DNA of 64,000 nucleotides, from contig CAZKEF010000014.1 of assembly GCA_964551735.1 (NCBI GenBank), positions 54,820-118,819 on the forward strand. Reading direction: 5' to 3'. This stretch comes from an uncultured Anaerolineales bacterium (GTDB lineage: Bacteria > Chloroflexota > Anaerolineae > CG2-30-64-16). The notes under the pieces are model-generated. The model ran no database searches, was not told the DNA's origin, and worked only from the letters and a program-made list of their open reading frames with translations. A program made the translations under genes and the position numbers. Numbering within the stretch: position 1 is the first letter of the stretch; each line of letters opens with the position of its first letter. Below are positions 30,136-40,170 of this stretch, piece by piece.

Positions 30136-31182
30136 ATGACAACCATCCGCGTCCTCCTGGCCGACGACCACGCGGTCGTGCGGTCGGGCATCCGCAACGC
30201 GCTGAACGACCTGCCGGGCCTGGTGGTGGTGGGCGAGGTGGGCGACGGTCGCGCGTTGGGGAGCGCCCTGGAGACGCTGCGGCCCGACCTGCTGCTGATT
30301 GACGTGACCATGCCGGATTTCGAACCGGTCGCGGCCATCCGCCAGATCCGGGCGCGCCACCCCGCGCTGAAGATCCTGATCGTCAGCGCCTACGACGATG
30401 ACGCCTACGTCCAGGGCTTGCTGGGCGTGGGGGTCAACGGCTACCACCTGAAAGATCAGCCACTCAGCGACCTGCGCCTGGCCGTGCAGCGCGTCCTGGC
30501 CGGCGAACGTTGGATCTCCAGCTCGCTCATCAGCAAGCTGCTTCACACTGCTGACGTGCCCGCGGCGGCCGCCTCGCTCACCAGCCGCCAACGCGAGCTC
30601 CTGCGCCTCCTGGTACAGGGTTATGACAATCAAAGCCTGGGCCGCGAGACCGGCCTCAGCGTCAAAACCATCGAAAACCACCTGACGCGCCTGTACCGTC
30701 AACTCAACGTGCAGAGCCGGCTGGAGGCGGTTCACTTTGCCAGCCAGCATCCTGATCTGCTGAGCCCAGTCCAGCCCGCGGCCGAAGGCAACCTAGCAGA
30801 TTTCCTGCCCCAGGGCCGGTTCACCGTGCTGCTGGTAGATGACAACCCGCGCTATCGCAGCCAGTTACAGCGCATGGTCAGCCGGACCAGCCCGCAGGCA
30901 GTGATTCACGAAGCCGGCAACACGGCCGAGGCCCTCCGGCTAGTCGAGCAGACGCAGCCCCAGCTTGTGCTGGTGGACGTGCTCCTGGGAGATGAAGACG
31001 GCATCCGCTGCGCCCGGCGCATCAAGGCGCTGCGGCCTCAAGCACGCATCATGCTGATCAGCGCGTATCCCGACCGGGAGTTCCGCCGCCTGGGCATGGA
31101 GGCTGGCGCCGCGGCTTTCCTGGACAAAAAAGACCTGGACGCGGCCACCGTGCGCCAGATGATCGAGGACATGCTGGCATGA
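30136..31182 (+). CDS. Response regulator with REC, LuxR-type HTH and a second REC domain
   Basis: REC1 has LLADDH, LLIDV and YHLK. The HTH is LTSRQRELLRLLVQGYDNQSLGRETGLSVKTIENHL. REC2 has LLVDDN, LVLVDV and FLDKK. Confidence 0.8.
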   Translation: MTTIRVLLADDHAVVRSGIRNALNDLPGLVVVGEVGDGRALGSALETLRPDLLLIDVTMPDFEPVAAIRQIRARHPALKILIVSAYDDDAYVQGLLGVGVNGYHLKDQPLSDLRLAVQRVLAGERWISSSLISKLLHTADVPAAAASLTSRQRELLRLLVQGYDNQSLGRETGLSVKTIENHLTRLYRQLNVQSRLEAVHFASQHPDLLSPVQPAAEGNLADFLPQGRFTVLLVDDNPRYRSQLQRMVSRTSPQAVIHEAGNTAEALRLVEQTQPQLVLVDVLLGDEDGIRCARRIKALRPQARIMLISAYPDREFRRLGMEAGAAAFLDKKDLDAATVRQMIEDMLA

Positions 31183-32183
31183 AACAGGTGCTTGAAACCA
31201 CCAGACCTGGCCGCACGGGGGGCGCTAAACCGGAAAGGCCCTGGAAACGCCTGGTGAGTGAGCAGCTCTTCATTTCTGTCACCCTCTGCCTGATCGTCTT
31301 CGCCTTTCTTAGCCTCAACACGGCCACCTTCCTCAGCCGCAACAACATGGCCAGCCTGGCCCGGAACTTCTCATGGTTGGCGATCGTAGCGTTCGGCCAG
31401 AGCCTGGTGATCATTATCGGTGGGATTGACCTTTCAGTGGGCGCGACCATGGCACTGGCCGGGCTGGCCGCAGCCCAGGGGATGCAATGGGGGCTGCCCA
31501 TACCGCTCGCCATCTTGCTGGGGCTGCTGGTGGGCGGCGTGATGGGCTGGATCAACGGGATGCTGATCGCGCGCATCCGCCTGCCCGCCTTCATCGCCAC
31601 CCTGGGCACCATGAGCATCGCGCGCGGCGGCGCTTTCGGTCTCACCCAGGGTTGGTCCATCACCAACCTGCCGGAGACATTCCTGCGCCTGGGCCAGGCC
31701 GATGTGACCCTGGGGCCGCTGTCCCTCTCAATGCCTTTCGTGATTGCCCTACTGATCGCGCTCCTGGTCTGGCTGTTGCTGCGCCACACCGTCCTCGGCG
31801 CCGACATCTACGCCATGAGCAGCGGCGAGCGTGCGCTCCGGGCCACGGGCGTCAATGTGGTGCGGTTGAAGGTGGTTGTCTACACCCTATGTGGGTTGCT
31901 GGCGGCCATCGGCGGGCTGCTGATCACGGCACGGCTGGGCGTAGCGGCCCCCGCCGCAGCGGTTGGCTACGAAGTGGACGTCGTCGCGGCCGCGGTCATC
32001 GGCGGCACCAGCCTCTTTGGCGGGGTCGGCAGCACCATGGGCGTGCTGTTGGGCGCAGCCATCATCCAGATGTTGAACAACGGGCTGGTGCTGCTGGGCC
32101 TCCCCACCTATTGGCAAACCGCGGCCATCGGCGCCATGATCCTGATGAGCATCCTGCTGGACTATTGGCGCAGGCGGCAATAA
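31179..32183 (+). CDS. Sugar ABC transporter permease (RbsC/branched-sugar permease family)
   Basis: Multiple TM segments and the family pattern GGIDLSVGATMALAG. ATGA overlap with the response-regulator gene. Confidence 0.8.
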   Translation: MKQVLETTRPGRTGGAKPERPWKRLVSEQLFISVTLCLIVFAFLSLNTATFLSRNNMASLARNFSWLAIVAFGQSLVIIIGGIDLSVGATMALAGLAAAQGMQWGLPIPLAILLGLLVGGVMGWINGMLIARIRLPAFIATLGTMSIARGGAFGLTQGWSITNLPETFLRLGQADVTLGPLSLSMPFVIALLIALLVWLLLRHTVLGADIYAMSSGERALRATGVNVVRLKVVVYTLCGLLAAIGGLLITARLGVAAPAAAVGYEVDVVAAAVIGGTSLFGGVGSTMGVLLGAAIIQMLNNGLVLLGLPTYWQTAAIGAMILMSILLDYWRRRQ

Positions 32184-32195
32184 GGGGCGTCACGC

Positions 32196-33785
32196 ATGGA
32201 ACCGTTGCTGCGAGCCGTCAGCCTCTCCCTCACACTAGGCACGCTGCCGGCGCTCCGCCAGGTGAGCCTGGAGATTTTCCCCGGCGAAGTCGTCGGGCTG
32301 GCGGGCCAGAGCGGCGCCGGCAAGACCGCGCTCGCCATGCTGTTAGCCGGCGCCTATACGCCCACCGCGGGCGAGCTCTACCTGGCCGGCCGGCGGCTGC
32401 GTCCCCCTTTCCGTGCACGGAGCCTGGGCATCGAGGTGATCCACCAGCAGCCCGAAATGGCCGAGGGGTTGGACATCAGCCGCAACCTCTTTTTGGGCAG
32501 CGAGCTCGGCTGGCCGAAGGGAGCCGGCCGCTGGCTCAGGGTTCTGCAGCGCCGCCGGATGGACGAAGAGGCGGCGCACATCCTGGCGCGCCTGGGCATG
32601 TCGTGCCCCTTCCTACACGAGCGGGTGGCAAACCTGTCAAGCGAGCAACGCCAGTTGATCGCCATCGCCCGCGCGCTGACGCGGCCGGCACGGCTTGTCA
32701 TCATTGATGACCCCAGCTTGCTGCTCGGTTATCCCGCCCAACAAAGACTGCTGGGGCTCATCCGCGAGTGGCAACAACAGGGCACAGCCGTGTTCTTTGC
32801 CAGCGACAATGTGGACCTGCTCATGGCCGTGACCGACCGCATCCTGGTGCTGCGCCACGGCCGCTGTGAGGTTGAATTCCGCACCGACGCGGCCACCCGT
32901 GAGAGCATTCTCAGCGCTACGGTCGGCGCAGCCGATCAGCAACAGCTCACCCCCATCATCTGGGCGCTGGACAGTTATTACCGGGCGCGCGAACAGGCCG
33001 AAAAGCTGCACCAGCGGCAGGCGTTGTTGAAGCACGAGTTGAGCGCTGACGGCGAAGTGGATCGCCAACTCATTGACCACCTGGCCGATCAGATCACCGC
33101 GCTGGATCGCGCCAACCTCGCGCTGCAAGACGCACAGCGGCGGCTGCTGACCGAGTTGGAGCAAGAGCGCAAGCAGTTAGCGCGCGAGATTCATGACCAG
33201 GTGATCCAAGATCTGCTCGGAGTCGGCTACCAACTGGAAGAGCTGGAAGCCGAGGCGGGCGCGACCCCGGTGCTGCGCGCGGAGCTGCAAACCGTGCGTG
33301 ACAGCGTGCGCGAACTGGTGGGCGACCTCCGGCACATCTGCGGCGCGCTGCGGCCGCCGACGATTGACAGCCTGGGCCTGGGCTCGGCGCTGCAATCCTA
33401 CGCGCACGAGTGGCGCAGGCGAACCGGCATCGAGCTGACCCTCAACCTGGACCCCAACCTGGGACGCCTGCCCGAAGCTACCGAGCTCTCCATCTTCCGC
33501 ATCGTGCAAGAAGGGCTCAACAACGTGCGCAAACACGCCGCCGCGACGACGGTGACGATCAGCCTGGCGCATACCTCCCCCCGGCGGCTGATGCTGACCA
33601 TCGCGGATGACGGCCGCGGGCTAGGGGCAGACTTCGACCTGGCTGACCTTTCCACCCAGGGACATTACGGTGTGTTGGGCGTCACCGAGCGGGTGGCGCT
33701 GCTGGGCGGGCAGTGGCGTATCCACAATCGCCCCGAAGGCGGGACGTTGATCCAGGTGGAGATCCCACACCCGCGCGTGAGTTAG
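32196..33785 (+). CDS. Fusion protein: ABC-type nucleotide-binding domain (degenerate motifs), coiled coil, then HisKA_3/HATPase_c sensor histidine kinase
   Basis: Walker A GQSGAGKT and Q-loop HQQ are present. The signature is LSSEQ rather than LSGGQ, Walker B is IIDDP rather than DE, and the H-loop His is missing (FASDN). The kinase half has H-box LAREIHDQ, N-box QEGLNNVRKHA, G1 ADDGRGL and G2 GVLGVTERVALLGG. Confidence 0.75.
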   Translation: MEPLLRAVSLSLTLGTLPALRQVSLEIFPGEVVGLAGQSGAGKTALAMLLAGAYTPTAGELYLAGRRLRPPFRARSLGIEVIHQQPEMAEGLDISRNLFLGSELGWPKGAGRWLRVLQRRRMDEEAAHILARLGMSCPFLHERVANLSSEQRQLIAIARALTRPARLVIIDDPSLLLGYPAQQRLLGLIREWQQQGTAVFFASDNVDLLMAVTDRILVLRHGRCEVEFRTDAATRESILSATVGAADQQQLTPIIWALDSYYRAREQAEKLHQRQALLKHELSADGEVDRQLIDHLADQITALDRANLALQDAQRRLLTELEQERKQLAREIHDQVIQDLLGVGYQLEELEAEAGATPVLRAELQTVRDSVRELVGDLRHICGALRPPTIDSLGLGSALQSYAHEWRRRTGIELTLNLDPNLGRLPEATELSIFRIVQEGLNNVRKHAAATTVTISLAHTSPRRLMLTIADDGRGLGADFDLADLSTQGHYGVLGVTERVALLGGQWRIHNRPEGGTLIQVEIPHPRVS

Positions 33786-34011: not shown

Positions 34012-36201
34012 GTGAGAACCAATCTGTCACGTTTCATCATGATCGTCGTCGCCCTGGCGATGATCGCCGCATTCCTGACTGGCTGCCCCAGCCCTGCGAC
34101 CCCAGCCCCGGCAACGACCGGCGGCCAGACCGAGGCAGGCAAGGTGCCGGTAGGCATCGTGCTGCCGACCAAGGACGAACCCCGCTGGATCCAGGACCAG
34201 ACCCGCTTCCAGGATGCACTGAAGGCCGCGGGCTACGACGTCCAGATCCTGTTCAGCCAGGGCGATTCCGCCAAAGAGAAGGCCAACGTCGAGGCGCTGA
34301 TCAGCCAGGGCATCCAGGTCTTGGTCATCTGCCCGCATGATGGCACAGCGGCGGCGGCCGCCGCGGATGCTGCCCGCGCTGCGGGCGTGAAGGTCATCTC
34401 CTACGACCGCTTGATCCGCGACACCGACGCGGTAGACTACTACGTCACCTTCGACTCGGTCGCGGTCGGCGAGGCCTGGGGCCAGTACCTGGCCGACATG
34501 GCCGGCGCCACCAAGGGCAACAACCTCTACCTCTACGCCGGCGCGGCTTCCGACAACAACGCCTTCCTCTTCTTCGAGGGTGCCTGGAACAAGCTGCAGC
34601 CCAAGATCGCCGACGGCACCTTCGTCATCAAGAACTCCAGTGAAGCCGTCGCCCTGCAAGGCAAGGCCACGCTGACCCGCGACGAGATGGCCAAGATCAT
34701 CGGCCAGGTCACCACCAACTGGGATTTCGCCGTCGCCAAGAACCTCGCCGAGGCTAACCTCACCGCGGCCAAGCCCGAGGATAAGGGTACCGTCTTCATC
34801 GCCGCGCCCAACGACGGCACCGCCCGCTCCATTGCCGATGCCTTCGCCGCCGACAAGGAAGTCACCAAGTACTACATCACCGGCCAGGACGCCGAGAAAG
34901 CCTCCGTCCAATACATCATTGACGGCAAGCAGTCCATGACCGTCCTCAAGGACGTCCGCACCCTGGTCAGCGACGCCATCACCGCGGCCGTCGCCTACCT
35001 CAAGGGCGGCACGCCTGAGAAGACCACCACCTACAACAACGGCAAGATTGACGTGCCAGCCAAACCGTCCGCCATCGTCACCGTCACCCAGGACAACGTC
35101 AAGGCCGCCATCGTTGACTCCGGCTACTACCCGGCCAGCGACTTCCCGACCCTGGGCGCGGCCGCCCCTGCCCCGACCGGCAAGGTGCCGGTAGGCATCG
35201 TGCTGCCGACCAAGGACGAACCCCGCTGGATCCAGGACCAGACCCGCTTCCAGGATGCACTGAAGGCCGCGGGCTACGACGTCCAGATCCTGTTCAGCCA
35301 GGGCGATTCCGCCAAAGAGAAGGCCAACGTCGAGGCGCTGATCAGCCAGGGCATCCAGGTCTTGGTCATCTGCCCGCATGATGGCACAGCGGCGGCGGCC
35401 GCCGCGGATGCTGCCCGCGCTGCGGGCGTGAAGGTCATCTCCTACGACCGCTTGATCCGCGACACCGACGCGGTAGACTACTACGTCACCTTCGACTCGG
35501 TCGCGGTCGGCGAGGCCTGGGGCCAGTACCTGGCCGACATGGCCGGCGCCACCAAGGGCAACAACCTCTACCTCTACGCCGGCGCGGCTTCCGACAACAA
35601 CGCCTTCCTCTTCTTCGAGGGTGCCTGGAACAAGCTGCAGCCCAAGATCGCCGACGGCACCTTCGTCATCAAGAACTCCAGTGAAGCCGTCGCCCTGCAA
35701 GGCAAGGCCACGCTGACCCGCGACGAGATGGCCAAGATCATCGGCCAGGTCACCACCAACTGGGATTTCGCCGTCGCCAAGAACCTCGCCGAGGCTAACC
35801 TCACCGCGGCCAAGCCCGAGGATAAGGGTACCGTCTTCATCGCCGCGCCCAACGACGGCACCGCCCGCTCCATTGCCGATGCCTTCGCCGCCGACAAGGA
35901 AGTCACCAAGTACTACATCACCGGCCAGGACGCCGAGAAAGCCTCCGTCCAATACATCATTGACGGCAAGCAGTCCATGACCGTCCTCAAGGACGTCCGC
36001 ACCCTGGTCAGCGACGCCATCACCGCGGCCGTCGCCTACCTCAAGGGCGGCACGCCTGAGAAGACCACCACCTACAACAACGGCAAGATTGACGTGCCAG
36101 CCAAACCGTCCGCCATCGTCACCGTCACCCAGGACAACGTCAAGGCCGCCATCGTTGACTCCGGCTACTACCCGGCCAGCGACTTCCCGACCCTGAAGTA
36201 A
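34012..36201 (+). CDS. Sugar ABC substrate-binding lipoprotein with two identical tandem SBP domains (perfect 1041-bp in-frame duplication)
   Basis: GTG start after AAGGGAGG. Signal peptide with lipobox LTGC. Residues ~44-390 and ~391-729 are identical, matching nucleotides 34138-35155 and 35179-36196. Confidence 0.7.
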   Translation: MRTNLSRFIMIVVALAMIAAFLTGCPSPATPAPATTGGQTEAGKVPVGIVLPTKDEPRWIQDQTRFQDALKAAGYDVQILFSQGDSAKEKANVEALISQGIQVLVICPHDGTAAAAAADAARAAGVKVISYDRLIRDTDAVDYYVTFDSVAVGEAWGQYLADMAGATKGNNLYLYAGAASDNNAFLFFEGAWNKLQPKIADGTFVIKNSSEAVALQGKATLTRDEMAKIIGQVTTNWDFAVAKNLAEANLTAAKPEDKGTVFIAAPNDGTARSIADAFAADKEVTKYYITGQDAEKASVQYIIDGKQSMTVLKDVRTLVSDAITAAVAYLKGGTPEKTTTYNNGKIDVPAKPSAIVTVTQDNVKAAIVDSGYYPASDFPTLGAAAPAPTGKVPVGIVLPTKDEPRWIQDQTRFQDALKAAGYDVQILFSQGDSAKEKANVEALISQGIQVLVICPHDGTAAAAAADAARAAGVKVISYDRLIRDTDAVDYYVTFDSVAVGEAWGQYLADMAGATKGNNLYLYAGAASDNNAFLFFEGAWNKLQPKIADGTFVIKNSSEAVALQGKATLTRDEMAKIIGQVTTNWDFAVAKNLAEANLTAAKPEDKGTVFIAAPNDGTARSIADAFAADKEVTKYYITGQDAEKASVQYIIDGKQSMTVLKDVRTLVSDAITAAVAYLKGGTPEKTTTYNNGKIDVPAKPSAIVTVTQDNVKAAIVDSGYYPASDFPTLK
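34138..36196 (+). repeat. Perfect tandem direct repeat, 2 x 1018 bp joined by a 23-bp linker (period 1041 bp = 347 codons)
   Basis: Identical ORF-track entries 34533-34868 and 35574-35909, and identical nucleotide lines offset by 1041 bp. Confidence 0.85.
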
Positions 36202-36300
36202 GCGCCTGTAGCCAGTTCAGCCAGGAATAGTGATGGTGATGCAAGCCATCACTATTCCTGTGTCTTCTCGCCATTTCCTACTTCACCAGGAGATCTTGCC

Positions 36301-38862
36301 ATGCCAAACCAGCCTCCCATCTTGGAGATGAAGCACATTAGCAAATCTTTCCCCGGCGTGAAAGCGTTGAACGACGTGACCTTTCAAGTCGCCGCGGGTG
36401 AGATTCACTGCCTGGTCGGCGAAAATGGCGCCGGTAAGTCTACACTCATGAAGGTGCTGAGCGGTGTCTACCCCTATGGCATGTACACGGGTGATATCCT
36501 CTTCAACGGGGAAGTGCAGAAGTTTTCCGGCATCAGCGACAGTGAGAGGGTCGGCATTGCCATCATCTATCAGGAGCTGGCGCTGGTCCCTGAGATGACG
36601 GTCTATGAGAACATCTTCCTCGGCAATGAGATCCGAAAAGGCCTGACCATTGATTGGAACGAAACCATCAAGCGGGCGACGGAAGCACTCAAAAAGGTCA
36701 GGCTTGATGTCAACCCCGAGACCAAAGTCAAACATCTGGGCGTGGGCAAGCAGCAACTAATCGAAATTGCCAAGGCGCTGAGCAAGGATGTGAAACTGCT
36801 CATCCTGGATGAGCCGACTGCGGCACTGAACGAGGATGACAGCGAGAACCTGTTGAACCTGATCCGCGAGCTCAAAGGGCACGGCGTCTCGTGCGTCATG
36901 ATTTCGCACAAACTGAAAGAGGTTATCGCCATTGCAGATACGGTCACCGTTCTACGCGATGGCCAGACCATCTGTACGCTGGATGCCCACAAGGGCGAGG
37001 TGTCGGAACATGTGTTGATCAAACACATGGTTGGCCGCGAAATCAACAACATCTATCCGACCAGGCAGCGCAATCCGTTCAAAGCCACTGGGGGCGCCGT
37101 CGAAGCGGCGAAAGCGGCCGGGGTGAAGGTCATTTCGTATGATCGCCTGATCACCAACACCAAAGTCGTGGACTATTTTGTGACCTTTGACAGCATTGCG
37201 GTCGGCGTGCAACAGGCGCGCTACCTGGTTGACCGTGCACAGGGCAAGGGCAACCCGTTGTACCTCTATGCCGGCGCCCCGTCAGACAACAACGCCTTCC
37301 TGTTCCTCCAGGGCGCGTGGGGCGTGTTGCAGCCCAAGATTGCGGATGGCACGTTCGTCATCAAGAATTCGAGCCAGGCCAGTAAGCTCCAGGCAAACGT
37401 CGCGCTGACGCGTGACCAGGCCAGCGCGATCTTCGGACAGATCACCACCAACTGGGATCGCCATACTGCCCACAACCTGGCGCAGTTCAACCTGGCCGGC
37501 GTCACGGCGGCTGATAAGGGCAACGTCTTTGTTCTTGCGCCCAACGATAACACCGCGCGGGCAATCGGCGACGTATTCGCTGCCGATCCGGACGTCAAGA
37601 GCTACGTGATCACCGGTATGGATGCCGAGGAGGCCTCCCTCCCTTACATCCTCGAAGGCAAGCAGTCCATGACCGTTTTCAAGGATGTCCGCACACTGGT
37701 GCAGGCCGCGGTTGACGCGGCGGTCGCCCTGCTTAAGGGTCAGGCGCCCGCGACCAATGGCGTCTTCAACAACGGCGCCATGGACGTCCCGGCATTGCAG
37801 TCTCCGGTCATCGCCGTGGACCAGACGAACGCGAAAGCCATGCTGGTTGACTCTGGTTATTACAAAGTCAGCGATGCGGCCGGCGCGGCCCAGAAGTCCG
37901 CTGTCGCAGGCAACGTTGCCATCGGGGTCGTCCTCCCGACCGCCGACGAGCCGCGCTGGCTCCAGGATCGGGCCCGTTTCCAGGCCGCGTTCAAAGCAGC
38001 CGGGTACAATGCCGAAATCCTGTTTAGCCAGGGCAATGCCGCCAAGGAGAAAGAGAACATCGAGACGCTGGTGGCGAAGGGTATCAAAGTCCTTATCATC
38101 TGTCCGCAGGGCGGCGGCGAAGTGGTGCTCGAGGTCAAGAACTGGAACGCCTACGACCCCGCCGTGGGCCGGGAGATCCTCAAGGATGTAAACTTCAACG
38201 TCAAGAAGGGCGAGATCGTCGGCTTTGCGGGCCTGATGGGGTCCGGCCGCACCGAGCTGGCCTTGAGCCTGTTCGGGAATCCGAAAAACTATCGGACCCG
38301 GGGCGAGATTTACATCCAGGGCACGAAGCAGCACTTCACCCATCCGCACGAGGCTATCGCCGCGGGCATCGCGTATGCGACCGAGGACCGCAAGGCGGCT
38401 GGCCTGATCCTGATCCAGGATGTGAAACAAAACACCACGTTGGCGAACTTGCAGGAGATCGCCCGGCGTGGCGTCGTGGACGGCAATGCCGAGATCAAGG
38501 TGGCGGAAGAATACCGGAGCTCCCTTAACATCAAGACGCCGTCCATCGTGCAAAAGGTGGGCAACCTGAGCGGCGGCAACCAGCAAAAGGTCCAGATTGC
38601 GAAGTGGCTGTTCGTGAAGCCCGACCTGCTCATCCTGGACGAGCCGACGCGCGGCATTGATGTCGGCGCCAAGTATGAGATTTACACCATCATGACCCGG
38701 CTGGTGGAGCAGGGCATGAGCATCATCATGATCTCGTCCGAGTTGCCCGAGGTCCTGGGCATGAGCGATCGCGTGTATATCGTCTCGGCCGGTCGGATCA
38801 CCGGCGAGCTGCCGATCGAGGAAGCGACGCAAGAGAAGATCATGCAACTGGCCACAAGTTAA
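36301..38862 (+). CDS. CUT2-type sugar ABC ATPase (two NBDs, RbsA/XylG-like) with a ~340-aa circularly permuted SBP-like domain inserted between NBD1 and NBD2
   Basis: NBD1 (aa 1-261) and NBD2 (aa ~593-853) are complete: Walker A GENGAGKST and GLMGSGRTEL, signatures LGVGKQQ and LSGGNQQ, Walker B LILDEPT twice. The segment between them (GVKVISYDRLITNTKVVDYFVTFD ... KVLIICPQGG) is ~70% identical to the upstream SBP and is ordered C-half then N-half. Confidence 0.7.
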   Translation: MPNQPPILEMKHISKSFPGVKALNDVTFQVAAGEIHCLVGENGAGKSTLMKVLSGVYPYGMYTGDILFNGEVQKFSGISDSERVGIAIIYQELALVPEMTVYENIFLGNEIRKGLTIDWNETIKRATEALKKVRLDVNPETKVKHLGVGKQQLIEIAKALSKDVKLLILDEPTAALNEDDSENLLNLIRELKGHGVSCVMISHKLKEVIAIADTVTVLRDGQTICTLDAHKGEVSEHVLIKHMVGREINNIYPTRQRNPFKATGGAVEAAKAAGVKVISYDRLITNTKVVDYFVTFDSIAVGVQQARYLVDRAQGKGNPLYLYAGAPSDNNAFLFLQGAWGVLQPKIADGTFVIKNSSQASKLQANVALTRDQASAIFGQITTNWDRHTAHNLAQFNLAGVTAADKGNVFVLAPNDNTARAIGDVFAADPDVKSYVITGMDAEEASLPYILEGKQSMTVFKDVRTLVQAAVDAAVALLKGQAPATNGVFNNGAMDVPALQSPVIAVDQTNAKAMLVDSGYYKVSDAAGAAQKSAVAGNVAIGVVLPTADEPRWLQDRARFQAAFKAAGYNAEILFSQGNAAKEKENIETLVAKGIKVLIICPQGGGEVVLEVKNWNAYDPAVGREILKDVNFNVKKGEIVGFAGLMGSGRTELALSLFGNPKNYRTRGEIYIQGTKQHFTHPHEAIAAGIAYATEDRKAAGLILIQDVKQNTTLANLQEIARRGVVDGNAEIKVAEEYRSSLNIKTPSIVQKVGNLSGGNQQKVQIAKWLFVKPDLLILDEPTRGIDVGAKYEIYTIMTRLVEQGMSIIMISSELPEVLGMSDRVYIVSAGRITGELPIEEATQEKIMQLATS

Positions 38863-38934
38863 GCAGGAACAAGCTCACAGCGGGTGGCGCGATTATCGGC
38901 CCCCGGCAGAATTCATGTTACCAGGAGGATTCCG

Positions 38935-40170
38935 ATGAGTTCACAGCAAGCTAGTCCGGCCCAGGCCAAGGGCGGCACGGCTCAAATGTCGTTCATGCAG
39001 AACCTGCAGAAAATGATCCAGTCGAACATCCGCGACTACGGCATGTATATCGCCCTGGTCGTGATCATGTTGTTCTTCACCTGGCGGACGGACGGCCTGT
39101 TCCTTACGTCGCGGAACATCTCTAACCTGCTGGATCAGACAGGTTACATCGCCGTCATCGCGGTCGGCATGACGCTGGTCATCGTCATCCGGCACATTGA
39201 CCTGTCGGTCGGCTTTCTTTCCGGATTCCTCGCCGCAATAGCGGCTATCCTCATGAAATCCTTTGGCGTGCCCGCCTTTCTCGTCATCCCGCTGGCGTTG
39301 GCGCTCGGCATCGCGGCAGGCGCCTTAACTGCCTTCATGGTGGCGCAACTGGGCATCCCGGCCTTTGTCGCAACCCTGGGCGGGTGGCTGGTCTACCGCG
39401 GGCTCCTGCTGCTCGTCCTGGCGGGCACGGGCACGATCATCATTGACAGTAAGTTCTTCAACGACATCGGTAATGGCTACATTCCCGATATTCCCGGCCT
39501 CAATTTCCTGCCGGAAGTGCATAAGCTGACGCTGATCCTCGGGTTGCTGGCCATCGTCCTGTTCATCTTCAGCCAGATCAACAGCCGCCGCCAGAAGGCC
39601 GCGTACAACTTCGAAGTGCTGCCGATGAACCTGTTCATCCTGAAGCTGGTCTTCCTGGCGGCCGTGCTCGGCGCTGTGACCTGGATCCTGGCGGGCTACA
39701 ACGGCCTCTCCTGGACGGTTGTGATTATGTTGATCGTAGTCGGCATCTATCACTTCATCACCACACAGACCGTGCTGGGCCGGCACATCTATGCGATCGG
39801 CGGCAACCCCGAGGCGGCCCAGTTGAGCGGCATCAACGTTAGGAAGATGACCTACCTGGTTTTCGCCTCGATGGGCATGCTGGCTGCCTTGGGCGGGATC
39901 ATGTTCGCCTCCCGCCTGCGCTCCGCCACGCCGCAAGCCGGCACCCTGTTGGAATTGGATGCCATCGCGGCCGCCTTCATCGGCGGTGCATCCCCTGCCG
40001 GCGGCATCGGCACGATCTTGGGCTCGCTGATCGGCGCGCTGGTCTACATGTCGCTGACCAACGGCATGAACCTGATGGGCACGGATATCGCCCTCCAGTA
40101 CGTCGTCCGCGGCTTGGTGCTGGTGCTGGCGGTAATCTTCGATGTGACGACGCGGCGCGGCAGCAGGTAG
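38935..40170 (+). CDS. Sugar ABC transporter permease (RbsC/XylH/MglC family)
   Basis: AGGAGG SD before the ATG. Ten predicted TM segments and the family pattern. Confidence 0.8.
   Translation: MSSQQASPAQAKGGTAQMSFMQNLQKMIQSNIRDYGMYIALVVIMLFFTWRTDGLFLTSRNISNLLDQTGYIAVIAVGMTLVIVIRHIDLSVGFLSGFLAAIAAILMKSFGVPAFLVIPLALALGIAAGALTAFMVAQLGIPAFVATLGGWLVYRGLLLLVLAGTGTIIIDSKFFNDIGNGYIPDIPGLNFLPEVHKLTLILGLLAIVLFIFSQINSRRQKAAYNFEVLPMNLFILKLVFLAAVLGAVTWILAGYNGLSWTVVIMLIVVGIYHFITTQTVLGRHIYAIGGNPEAAQLSGINVRKMTYLVFASMGMLAALGGIMFASRLRSATPQAGTLLELDAIAAAFIGGASPAGGIGTILGSLIGALVYMSLTNGMNLMGTDIALQYVVRGLVLVLAVIFDVTTRRGSR

Follow-up and report, generated by a model that had tools for sequence, protein, structure and literature searches.

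In the cyanobacterial transporter subunits NrtC and CmpC, a cytoplasmic domain homologous to the transporter's own substrate-binding protein (SBP) is fused to a nucleotide-binding domain (NBD) of an ATP-binding cassette (ABC) importer. This domain, the CRD, holds both NBDs of the CmpC transporter locked until nitrate binds, and in NrtC it recruits the PII protein (PMC13287603, PMC10945777). MetN, ModC and PotA have trans-inhibition domains, and MalK has a regulatory domain; these too are cytoplasmic, bind a ligand or a partner, and hold the importer inactive at high cytoplasmic substrate (PMC13287603, PMC4245157). Here we describe a domain to be compared with these in a 64,000-nucleotide stretch of DNA from an uncultured Anaerolineales bacterium (contig CAZKEF010000014.1, positions 54,820 to 118,819 of the forward strand), which is called the window below. 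An uninterrupted reading frame of 853 codons at 36301..38862 (+) encodes the tandem-NBD ATPase of a ChvE-GguA-GguB-type monosaccharide ABC importer, and a binding-protein domain of 345 amino acids (aa 261-605), hereafter the insert, occupies its 8-residue NBD1-NBD2 linker, between linker residues 7 and 8.

The insert shares with the CRDs of NrtC and CmpC the homology to the transporter's own SBP, the fusion to an NBD, the cytoplasmic location and a two-lobed fold with a ligand cleft; regulation is known there and, by analogy, may be expected here. The CRDs are NrtA-like, belonging to an SBP family other than Peripla_BP_4, are unpermuted and about 30% identical to the SBP, and belong to a type I anion importer with two separate NBD subunits, one of which carries the CRD at its C-terminus via a hinge helix, whereas the insert is ChvE-type, 62% identical to its SBP, circularly permuted and internal to a single-chain tandem-NBD ATPase. 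Like the domains of MetN, ModC, PotA and MalK, it is a cytoplasmic domain attached to importer NBDs, its ligand binding being putative. Those domains, however, are small, C-terminal and unrelated to SBPs, and each transporter has two of them, which dimerise to act, while here a single domain of the periplasmic binding protein (PBP) fold per transporter lies between the NBDs, and the ATPase ends with NBD2 at aa 853 without a C-terminal extension. In LacI/GalR repressors, too, sugar is sensed in the cytoplasm by a domain of the type I PBP fold; here there is no DNA-binding domain.

Canonical GguA, XylG and RbsA resemble the ATPase of the window in their NBD sequences, their motifs, and their BPD_transp_2 permease and ChvE-type SBP partners, but lack the 345 extra residues in a linker that otherwise has 8. 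We know of no accessory regulatory domain in RbsA, XylG, MglA, AraG or GguA; our literature searches found none for tandem-NBD sugar importer ATPases, and they found no published description of this architecture. Engineered protein switches couple ligand binding to an enzyme through domain insertion and circular permutation, as with circularly permuted beta-lactamase in maltose-binding protein or circularly permuted GFP in binding proteins; compared with these, the combination of a permuted domain and an enzyme arose naturally here, from a neighbouring gene. A model's first reading of the window from its letters alone, referred to below as the original prediction, had called a PBP fold in a cytoplasmic ATPase highly unusual, which is overstated given the SBP-homologous cytoplasmic domains of NrtC and CmpC (PMC10945777, PMC13287603). 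An SBP-derived cytoplasmic regulator itself has precedent; what is unusual here is that the domain is permuted, lies inside the chain and belongs to this family of transporters.

Architecture of the insert-bearing ATPase

The ATPase gene is composed as follows.

36301..37080, plus strand: NBD1 (aa 1-253, with ABC_tran at aa 23-174) and linker residues 1-7 (aa 254-260, TRQRNPF)
37081..37869, plus strand: first part of the insert (aa 261-523), equivalent to the SBP from the helix that follows strand beta-3 through to its C-terminus, matching Peripla_BP_4 positions 67-257
37870..37920, plus strand: former inter-unit linker, now an internal loop (aa 524-540, SDAAGAAQKSAVAGNVA), linker-like in length, rich in A, P, S and G, and variable in the family
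37921..38115, plus strand: last part of the insert (aa 541-605), SBP strands beta-1 to beta-3, from IGVVLPTADEPRW to KVLIICPQGG, matching Peripla_BP_1 positions 3-66
38116..38862, plus strand: last linker residue (G606), NBD2 (aa 607-853, with the second ABC_tran) and the stop codon

The order of the domain halves within the insert was read from Pfam profiles. Peripla_BP_4 covers aa 261-481 with its positions 67-257, and Peripla_BP_1 then covers aa 540-603 with its positions 3-66, so that the C-terminal three quarters of a binding protein precede its N-terminal quarter, indicating a circular permutation. Consistently, BLASTP aligned the insert with the SBP encoded upstream in a single colinear alignment to SBP residues 125-458, which crosses the junction between the two units of that protein (62% protein identity over 335 aa, E = 2e-141); the last part of the insert aligned with SBP residues 403-458 and 42-111. 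The first part opens with KATGGAVEAAKAAGVKVISYD, and NCBIfam ChvE positions 70-322 match the insert. At the DNA level, the identity between the insert and the SBP gene in the window is only about 74%.

Both ends of the insert could be placed to the residue. It starts at K261, where KATGGAVEAAKAAG pairs residue for residue with TAAAAAADAARAAG of the SBP, directly after ...VICPHDG, and it closes with ...IICPQGG605, followed by G606-EVVLEVKNW. The first SBP position of the insert therefore directly follows its last one, and in the main family the span runs from the residue after the SBP 'CPHDG' up to the next 'CPHDG'. The corresponding DNA junctions, 37080/37081 and 38115/38116, are both in frame. 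Removal of aa 261-605 leaves YP-TRQRNPF-G-EVVLEVKNW, which in length and pattern is the canonical 8-residue linker found in the 508-aa orthologues, YP-x-R-x-(R/H)-x-x-x-(D/G)-EVVLEVKNW (for example YPRRERIRSDEVVLEVRNW in L024). At 345 aa, the insert is one SBP period long to within about 1 residue; in genomes with the insert this period measures 343-350 aa. Between ...DSGYYxxx and VG(I/V)VLP it holds a 13-17-residue segment rich in A, P, S and G, which in length and composition resembles the inter-unit linkers of tandem SBPs and not a lipoprotein leader. The retention of an inter-unit linker inside the insert indicates that the donor was a tandem SBP gene. The Peripla_BP_4 fold is complete, with every secondary-structure element present once; neither the native chain order nor an export signal is found, the insert being permuted and leaderless. 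An intein, a mobile element and an exported insert were considered and ruled out, as there is no hydrophobic segment and the whole length is SBP-homologous.

Apart from its linker, the host protein is in all respects an intact GguA-type tandem-NBD ATPase, just as the insert departs from a ChvE-type binding domain only in chain order and location. Pfam found ABC_tran twice in the 853-aa ATPase, and both NBDs carry their motifs: GENGAGKS (Walker A), LGVGKQQ, LLILDEPT (Walker B) and ISHKL (H-loop) in NBD1, and GLMGSGRT, LSGGNQQ, LLILDEPT and ISSEL in NBD2. We take this pattern, that of the second NBD included, to be the usual one for CUT2 ATPases. The best NCBIfam model for the NBDs was GguA (NF040905), whose positions 1-252 match NBD1; its score of 745.9 bits is below the curated cutoff of 810, probably because the insert splits the match in two. 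The operon provides the permease (BPD_transp_2) and ChvE-type SBP partners of a CUT2 importer. The insert-bearing ATPase is the only one that it encodes, and the transporter therefore has to run on it.

An intact tandem-NBD sugar ATPase, a circularly permuted SBP inside it, a canonical linker on deletion of the middle block and the derivation of that block from a tandem SBP gene had all been put forward in the original prediction, and are borne out by the two sets of NBD motifs, the profile order with the colinear alignment, the pattern of the 508-aa orthologues, and the retained linker with the one-period length, respectively. Some of its figures needed correction. It had given about 70% identity between insert and SBP, where 62% was measured, and had NBD2 begin near aa 593, where the insert ends at G605 and NBD2 starts at 606. 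Its junctions near 37095 and 38120 were close to the exact ones, and it rightly had the insert begin at the SBP mid-domain, but the 'GVKVISYD' that it took as the beginning lies 13 residues too late.

Distribution, predicted fold and selection

A search of 5.8 billion proteins, with clusters formed at 90% identity, returned the window protein and 119 more clusters with equal Pfam content, about 74-88% identical and 831-870 aa long, save one partial protein of 805 aa. At least 110 clusters, drawn from NCBI, ENA, JGI and Logan assemblies, have the architecture and both junctions in common, with lengths of 844-870 aa and identities of 73-88%; some lie on contigs of 2.0 and 2.5 Mb, and the 2.0-Mb contig carries the complete operon. 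When one genome per species was taken (GTDB), the insert was found in its main form at 20 loci (L001-L015 and L017-L021) of Chloroflexota, mostly Anaerolineae and with Candidatus Amarolinea aalborgensis among them; one locus, L012, is binned as Bacteroidota. The 17 full-length genes from species-level Chloroflexota genomes have identical junctions. The NBD-SBP-NBD architecture that the original prediction had noticed in one gene is thus recurrent, in clusters and in species-level genomes alike. In two metagenome-assembled genomes (MAGs) of long-read type, L019 (CP059258.1) and L020, frameshifts break the insert-bearing ATPase into at least 3 open reading frames (ORFs); these are probably sequencing errors rather than pseudogenes.

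Among 1.84 billion representatives at 50% identity, the architecture was present in P0046 only, indicating that the family is narrow, and no distant second NBD-PBP-NBD family was found. Other long hits proved not to be NBD-PBP-NBD proteins: additional ABC_tran stretches account for P0129, P0142 fuses a permease with an ATPase, and tandem SBPs make up P0121-P0123. A 794-aa protein from Logan assemblies, P0268, is a low-GC CUT2-type ATPase with an unpermuted Peripla_BP_4 fused directly to its C-terminus and no signal peptide. Its cluster consists of 2 sequences on 3 contigs and no relatives share its architecture, and it was not used as support for a second kind of fusion.

AlphaFold2, run with a 112-sequence alignment, gave a mean predicted local distance difference test (pLDDT) score of 82.7 for the full protein and folded the insert confidently, with values mostly of 80-97 (83-93 in the last part), save in the old inter-unit linker (aa 525-537, below 50) and at the first junction (aa 245-260). 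The top Foldseek match in the PDB was 4RXU, the carbohydrate SBP Caur_1924 of Chloroflexus aurantiacus, with a TM-score of 0.73 (target-normalised) despite the permutation. The highest 19-residue Kyte-Doolittle mean anywhere in the ATPase is 1.23, against about 1.6 as the convention for a membrane segment. With no membrane or signal segment, and embedded between the NBDs, the insert is placed in the cytoplasm.

To describe selection on the insert, the ratio of nonsynonymous to synonymous substitution (dN/dS) was calculated by the Nei-Gojobori method (NG86) for the 17 genes, with medians taken over the 61 pairs with dS < 2. The insert had a median dN/dS of 0.138, against 0.072 in NBD1 and 0.096 in NBD2, whereas the true SBP unit of the same genomes gave 0.21, indicating that the insert is at least as constrained as its source protein. 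It has persisted though synonymous sites are near saturation (dS around 1-2). Conservation was then compared after the inserts had been rotated and aligned with 85 SBP units. The same residue is at least 90% conserved in both SBPs and inserts in 125 columns, among them those of EPRW, YDR, TFDS, D-x-N, PND, GQDAE and MTVxKD. The motifs map to R16, W17, D90, R91, D135, N137, N196, D222 and K242 of the E. coli xylose-binding protein XBP (3M9W; alignment numbering), which are presumably its xylose-contacting residues. SYDR and MTVFKD do not vary among 99 family members, of which 97 keep APND, 97 keep EPRW and 93 keep TG(Q/M)DAE; the position before the D of TGQDAE is Q in 80, M in 13 and another residue in 6, and the window has M. 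Judged by alignment, the insert keeps the candidate sugar-contacting positions. F460, D472, L477 and K479, on one helix, and a few other positions are conserved in inserts yet not in SBPs. Altogether, the insert is almost certainly a real, selected and folded SBP-derived domain.

The tandem SBP gene, its surroundings and the origin of the insert

The gene upstream of the ATPase has the following parts.

34012..36201, plus strand: tandem ChvE-type sugar-binding lipoprotein of 729 aa with a lipobox leader (Peripla_BP_4 twice; NCBIfam ChvE)
34138-35154, plus strand: SBP unit 1, 1017 nt
Between 35154 and 35179, plus strand: inter-unit linker of 24 nt, encoding GAAAPAPT
35179-36195, plus strand: SBP unit 2, 1017 nt

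This SBP scores 499 bits with the NCBIfam ChvE model, over the cutoff of 460, and matches the sequence of 4RXU, the Chloroflexus aurantiacus SBP, with E = 4e-170 (about 85% identical by eye). Its two units are 100% identical in DNA over 1017 nt. In 29 related genomes, units within one SBP gene have 80-99.8% DNA identity, while SBP units of other genomes are only about 70-89% identical to the window unit in protein; identity within genes above that between genomes shows that the units evolve in concert. SBP versions with one unit or three units (1006-1080 aa) were also found, and the occurrence of one-, two- and three-unit versions indicates that the array is recombinationally active. Two-unit SBP genes adjoin both insert-bearing and canonical ATPases.

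The canonical form is represented by 508-aa orthologues in many sister genomes, including that of Anaerolinea thermolimosa, with NBDs 73-89% identical. The main-family inserts form one clade that is sister to all SBP units, and this monophyly points to a single, old origin. The NBDs that bear them were not recovered as monophyletic (0/100 neighbour-joining bootstraps). A second NBD-SBP-NBD protein, of 866 aa, was found in one MAG, GCA_035315125.1, at L016 (DATFYI010000202.1; 6201-8801 = L082 10001-12601). Its insert uses the same linker, with YPDRKHAR followed by a YEPRW start just after strand beta-1, and ends with ...LAVGIVLPMA, then ME-EVILEVKNW; it is again one period long, with another opening point, and it branches on the SBP side of the tree. 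A full protein-database search returned no other protein with the L016-type permutation, and there is no SBP gene within 10 kb of the L016 ATPase. L016 may thus record a separate capture, or else be an isolated and unconfirmed case.

We take the donor to have been a two-unit tandem SBP gene like the neighbouring one, and propose an excision route. Recombination between its near-identical units would excise one repeat unit as a circle, which would then re-integrate in the ATPase linker through one illegitimate crossover. Such a route predicts an insert of one period, with an arbitrary opening and with the inter-unit linker inside, and two differently opened one-period inserts in the same linker are what it would lead one to expect. 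Alternatively, classical duplication followed by deletion, with selection for foldable lengths, may have made the insert.

Further features of the operon and of the region upstream of the SBP gene are these.

38884..40170, plus strand: GguB-type permease of the same operon (BPD_transp_2 by Pfam; NCBIfam GguB, 416 bits)
36222..36270, plus strand: perfect hairpin of 16 bp trailed by a U-rich stretch, lying between the genes for SBP and ATPase; from a terminator scan
30136-31182: REC-GerE-REC response regulator, upstream of the SBP gene
31179-32183: RbsC-like BPD_transp_2 permease, upstream of the SBP gene
32196-33785: fusion of a single ABC NBD with a histidine kinase (HisKA_3/HATPase_c), upstream of the SBP gene

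The gene order SBP-ATPase-permease is kept in relatives; the true start codon of the permease may lie downstream of 38884. The 110-nt stretch between the SBP and ATPase genes is predicted to fold at -37.5 kcal/mol (z = -4.0 against shuffles), and its hairpin is probably a partial terminator or attenuator giving a high SBP-to-transporter ratio. The G+C content is 0.53-0.61 in the ATPase and permease genes (window positions 36250-40000), with a minimum of 0.53-0.56 in NBD1; the SBP gene has about 0.62-0.66, and the genes on either side mostly have 0.63-0.72. The module at 30136-33785 looks like a transporter-shaped sugar sensor, possibly using the same SBP. Its NBD-kinase fusion also occurs upstream of the SBP in L081, and many canonical loci have ABC-ATPase-like ORFs of about 540-560 aa near the operon, which match it in size. 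We found no paper on an NBD-kinase sensor module of this kind.

Possible roles of the insert

We give an even chance to the insert being a cytoplasmic regulator that modulates the ATPase in a ligand-dependent manner. Most likely, it would bind the imported monosaccharide inside the cell. It is tethered at both ends, where NBD1 stops and where NBD2 starts, and both ends leave from the loop after N-lobe strand beta-3; in type I binding proteins this loop lies on the edge that faces the cleft. Ligand-driven closure or docking of the domain would alter the freedom of NBD1 and NBD2 to close on ATP. The most likely sign would be negative feedback, with trans-inhibition of uptake at high cytoplasmic sugar. 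We put forward more tentatively the fuller proposal of a natural allosteric switch, in which an SBP captured via a one-unit circle gates NBD closure on cytoplasmic sugar, by a route that was maybe used twice. The intracellular sensor suggested in the original prediction fits the purifying selection, the conserved candidate ligand positions and the confident fold. Its allosteric gating is a deduction, and we likewise infer sugar binding, ATPase coupling, the sign of regulation and the circle mechanism from the features described above.

Several points weigh against this switch. Part of the purifying selection could come from the requirement that an essential ATPase still folds, and AlphaFold gave a predicted TM-score (pTM) of only 0.54, too low to rely on where the model places the domain with respect to the NBDs. 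Canonical transporters run without the insert, which makes the domain dispensable in some lineages, and no cultured isolate with the insert turned up, the Anaerolinea thermolimosa isolate having the canonical form. In addition, the canonical L022 nests among insert-bearing NBDs in 100/100 neighbour-joining bootstraps; in a comparison of L022, L041 and L075 with L001-L018, the identity of L022 to insert-bearing NBDs was 87-89% in NBD1 and 81-88% in NBD2. This nesting suggests that the insert was later lost, or that alleles with and without it recombined, and it may also arise from poor tree resolution. The excision of a circle is itself deduced from two cases, one of them a singleton. Finally, mutation of the nitrate site in the NRT transporter left regulation wild-type, its domain serving as a PII docking platform (PMC10945777), a warning that regulation need not act through a binding site merely because the site is kept.

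The NrtC precedent makes it conceivable, although in our estimate unlikely, that the insert functions as a docking platform or a structural brace and not as a sugar-gated switch. A signalling protein, or the transporter-like histidine kinase encoded nearby, could be its partner: the positions conserved in inserts alone (F460, D472, L477 and K479) could form a new interface, and a conserved sensor module, with the ABC_tran-HisKA_3 fusion, the permease-like protein and the response regulator, lies just upstream. However, this module equally adjoins insert-free canonical ATPases, so there is no co-variation, and the XBP-aligned motifs are kept family-wide (bar the Q/M exchange in TGQDAE), which pure docking would not require.

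The same retained motifs, in a domain tethered directly under the transporter, would also suit a cytoplasmic acceptor that takes the sugar leaving the permease and hands it on or buffers it without regulating the ATPase. We regard this as improbable, since one sugar per transporter would be negligible buffering and canonical orthologues do without the insert; it also counts against such a role that we know of no precedent for it in ABC importers.

Even less probable is a tolerated passenger, an old accident kept because its disruption would misfold the ATPase. The inter-NBD linker is a permissive site, sister lineages lack the insert, and a canonical gene nests among insert-bearing ones, all of which a passenger would allow. 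Nevertheless, the dN/dS of the insert (0.14) is under that of the real SBP (0.21), its polar cleft residues are specifically conserved, and it has outlasted a divergence at which synonymous sites are near saturation (dS around 1-2); 345 aa without any use should sooner decay or be lost by deletion. The recent non-functional mosaic that the original prediction had also entertained is refuted by the at least 110 clusters, the 17 genomes, the DNA identity of about 74% and the dN/dS of 0.14.

An assembly chimera or a gene-calling artefact of one contig has a vanishingly small probability: the perfect 1017-nt repeat in the upstream SBP gene is of the type that confuses assemblers, but the misassembly feared in the original prediction is refuted for the main family by identical architecture (851-853 aa) and in-frame junctions in more than 110 independent clusters from separate assemblies (contigs of 2.0 and 2.5 Mb included) and in the 17 genomes, and at about 74% DNA identity the insert and the SBP gene share no k-mers to cause a mis-join.

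If the regulatory role is true, no tandem-NBD (CUT2-type) sugar importer before this one would have had a regulatory domain built in. A conserved, selected sugar-binding domain between the NBDs would be a self-contained feedback device, and it offers a testable system for the coupling of binding-protein closure to the ABC motor. The protein is a natural counterpart of permute-and-insert biosensor design. It is also rare that a donor (the tandem SBP), an insert-free recipient (the canonical orthologues) and their product can still be seen together. That two versions with different openings are both one period long suggests a concrete DNA mechanism for natural permutation and insertion, and, if the second opening in L016 is true, tandem repeats may be a general seed of permuted domain insertions.

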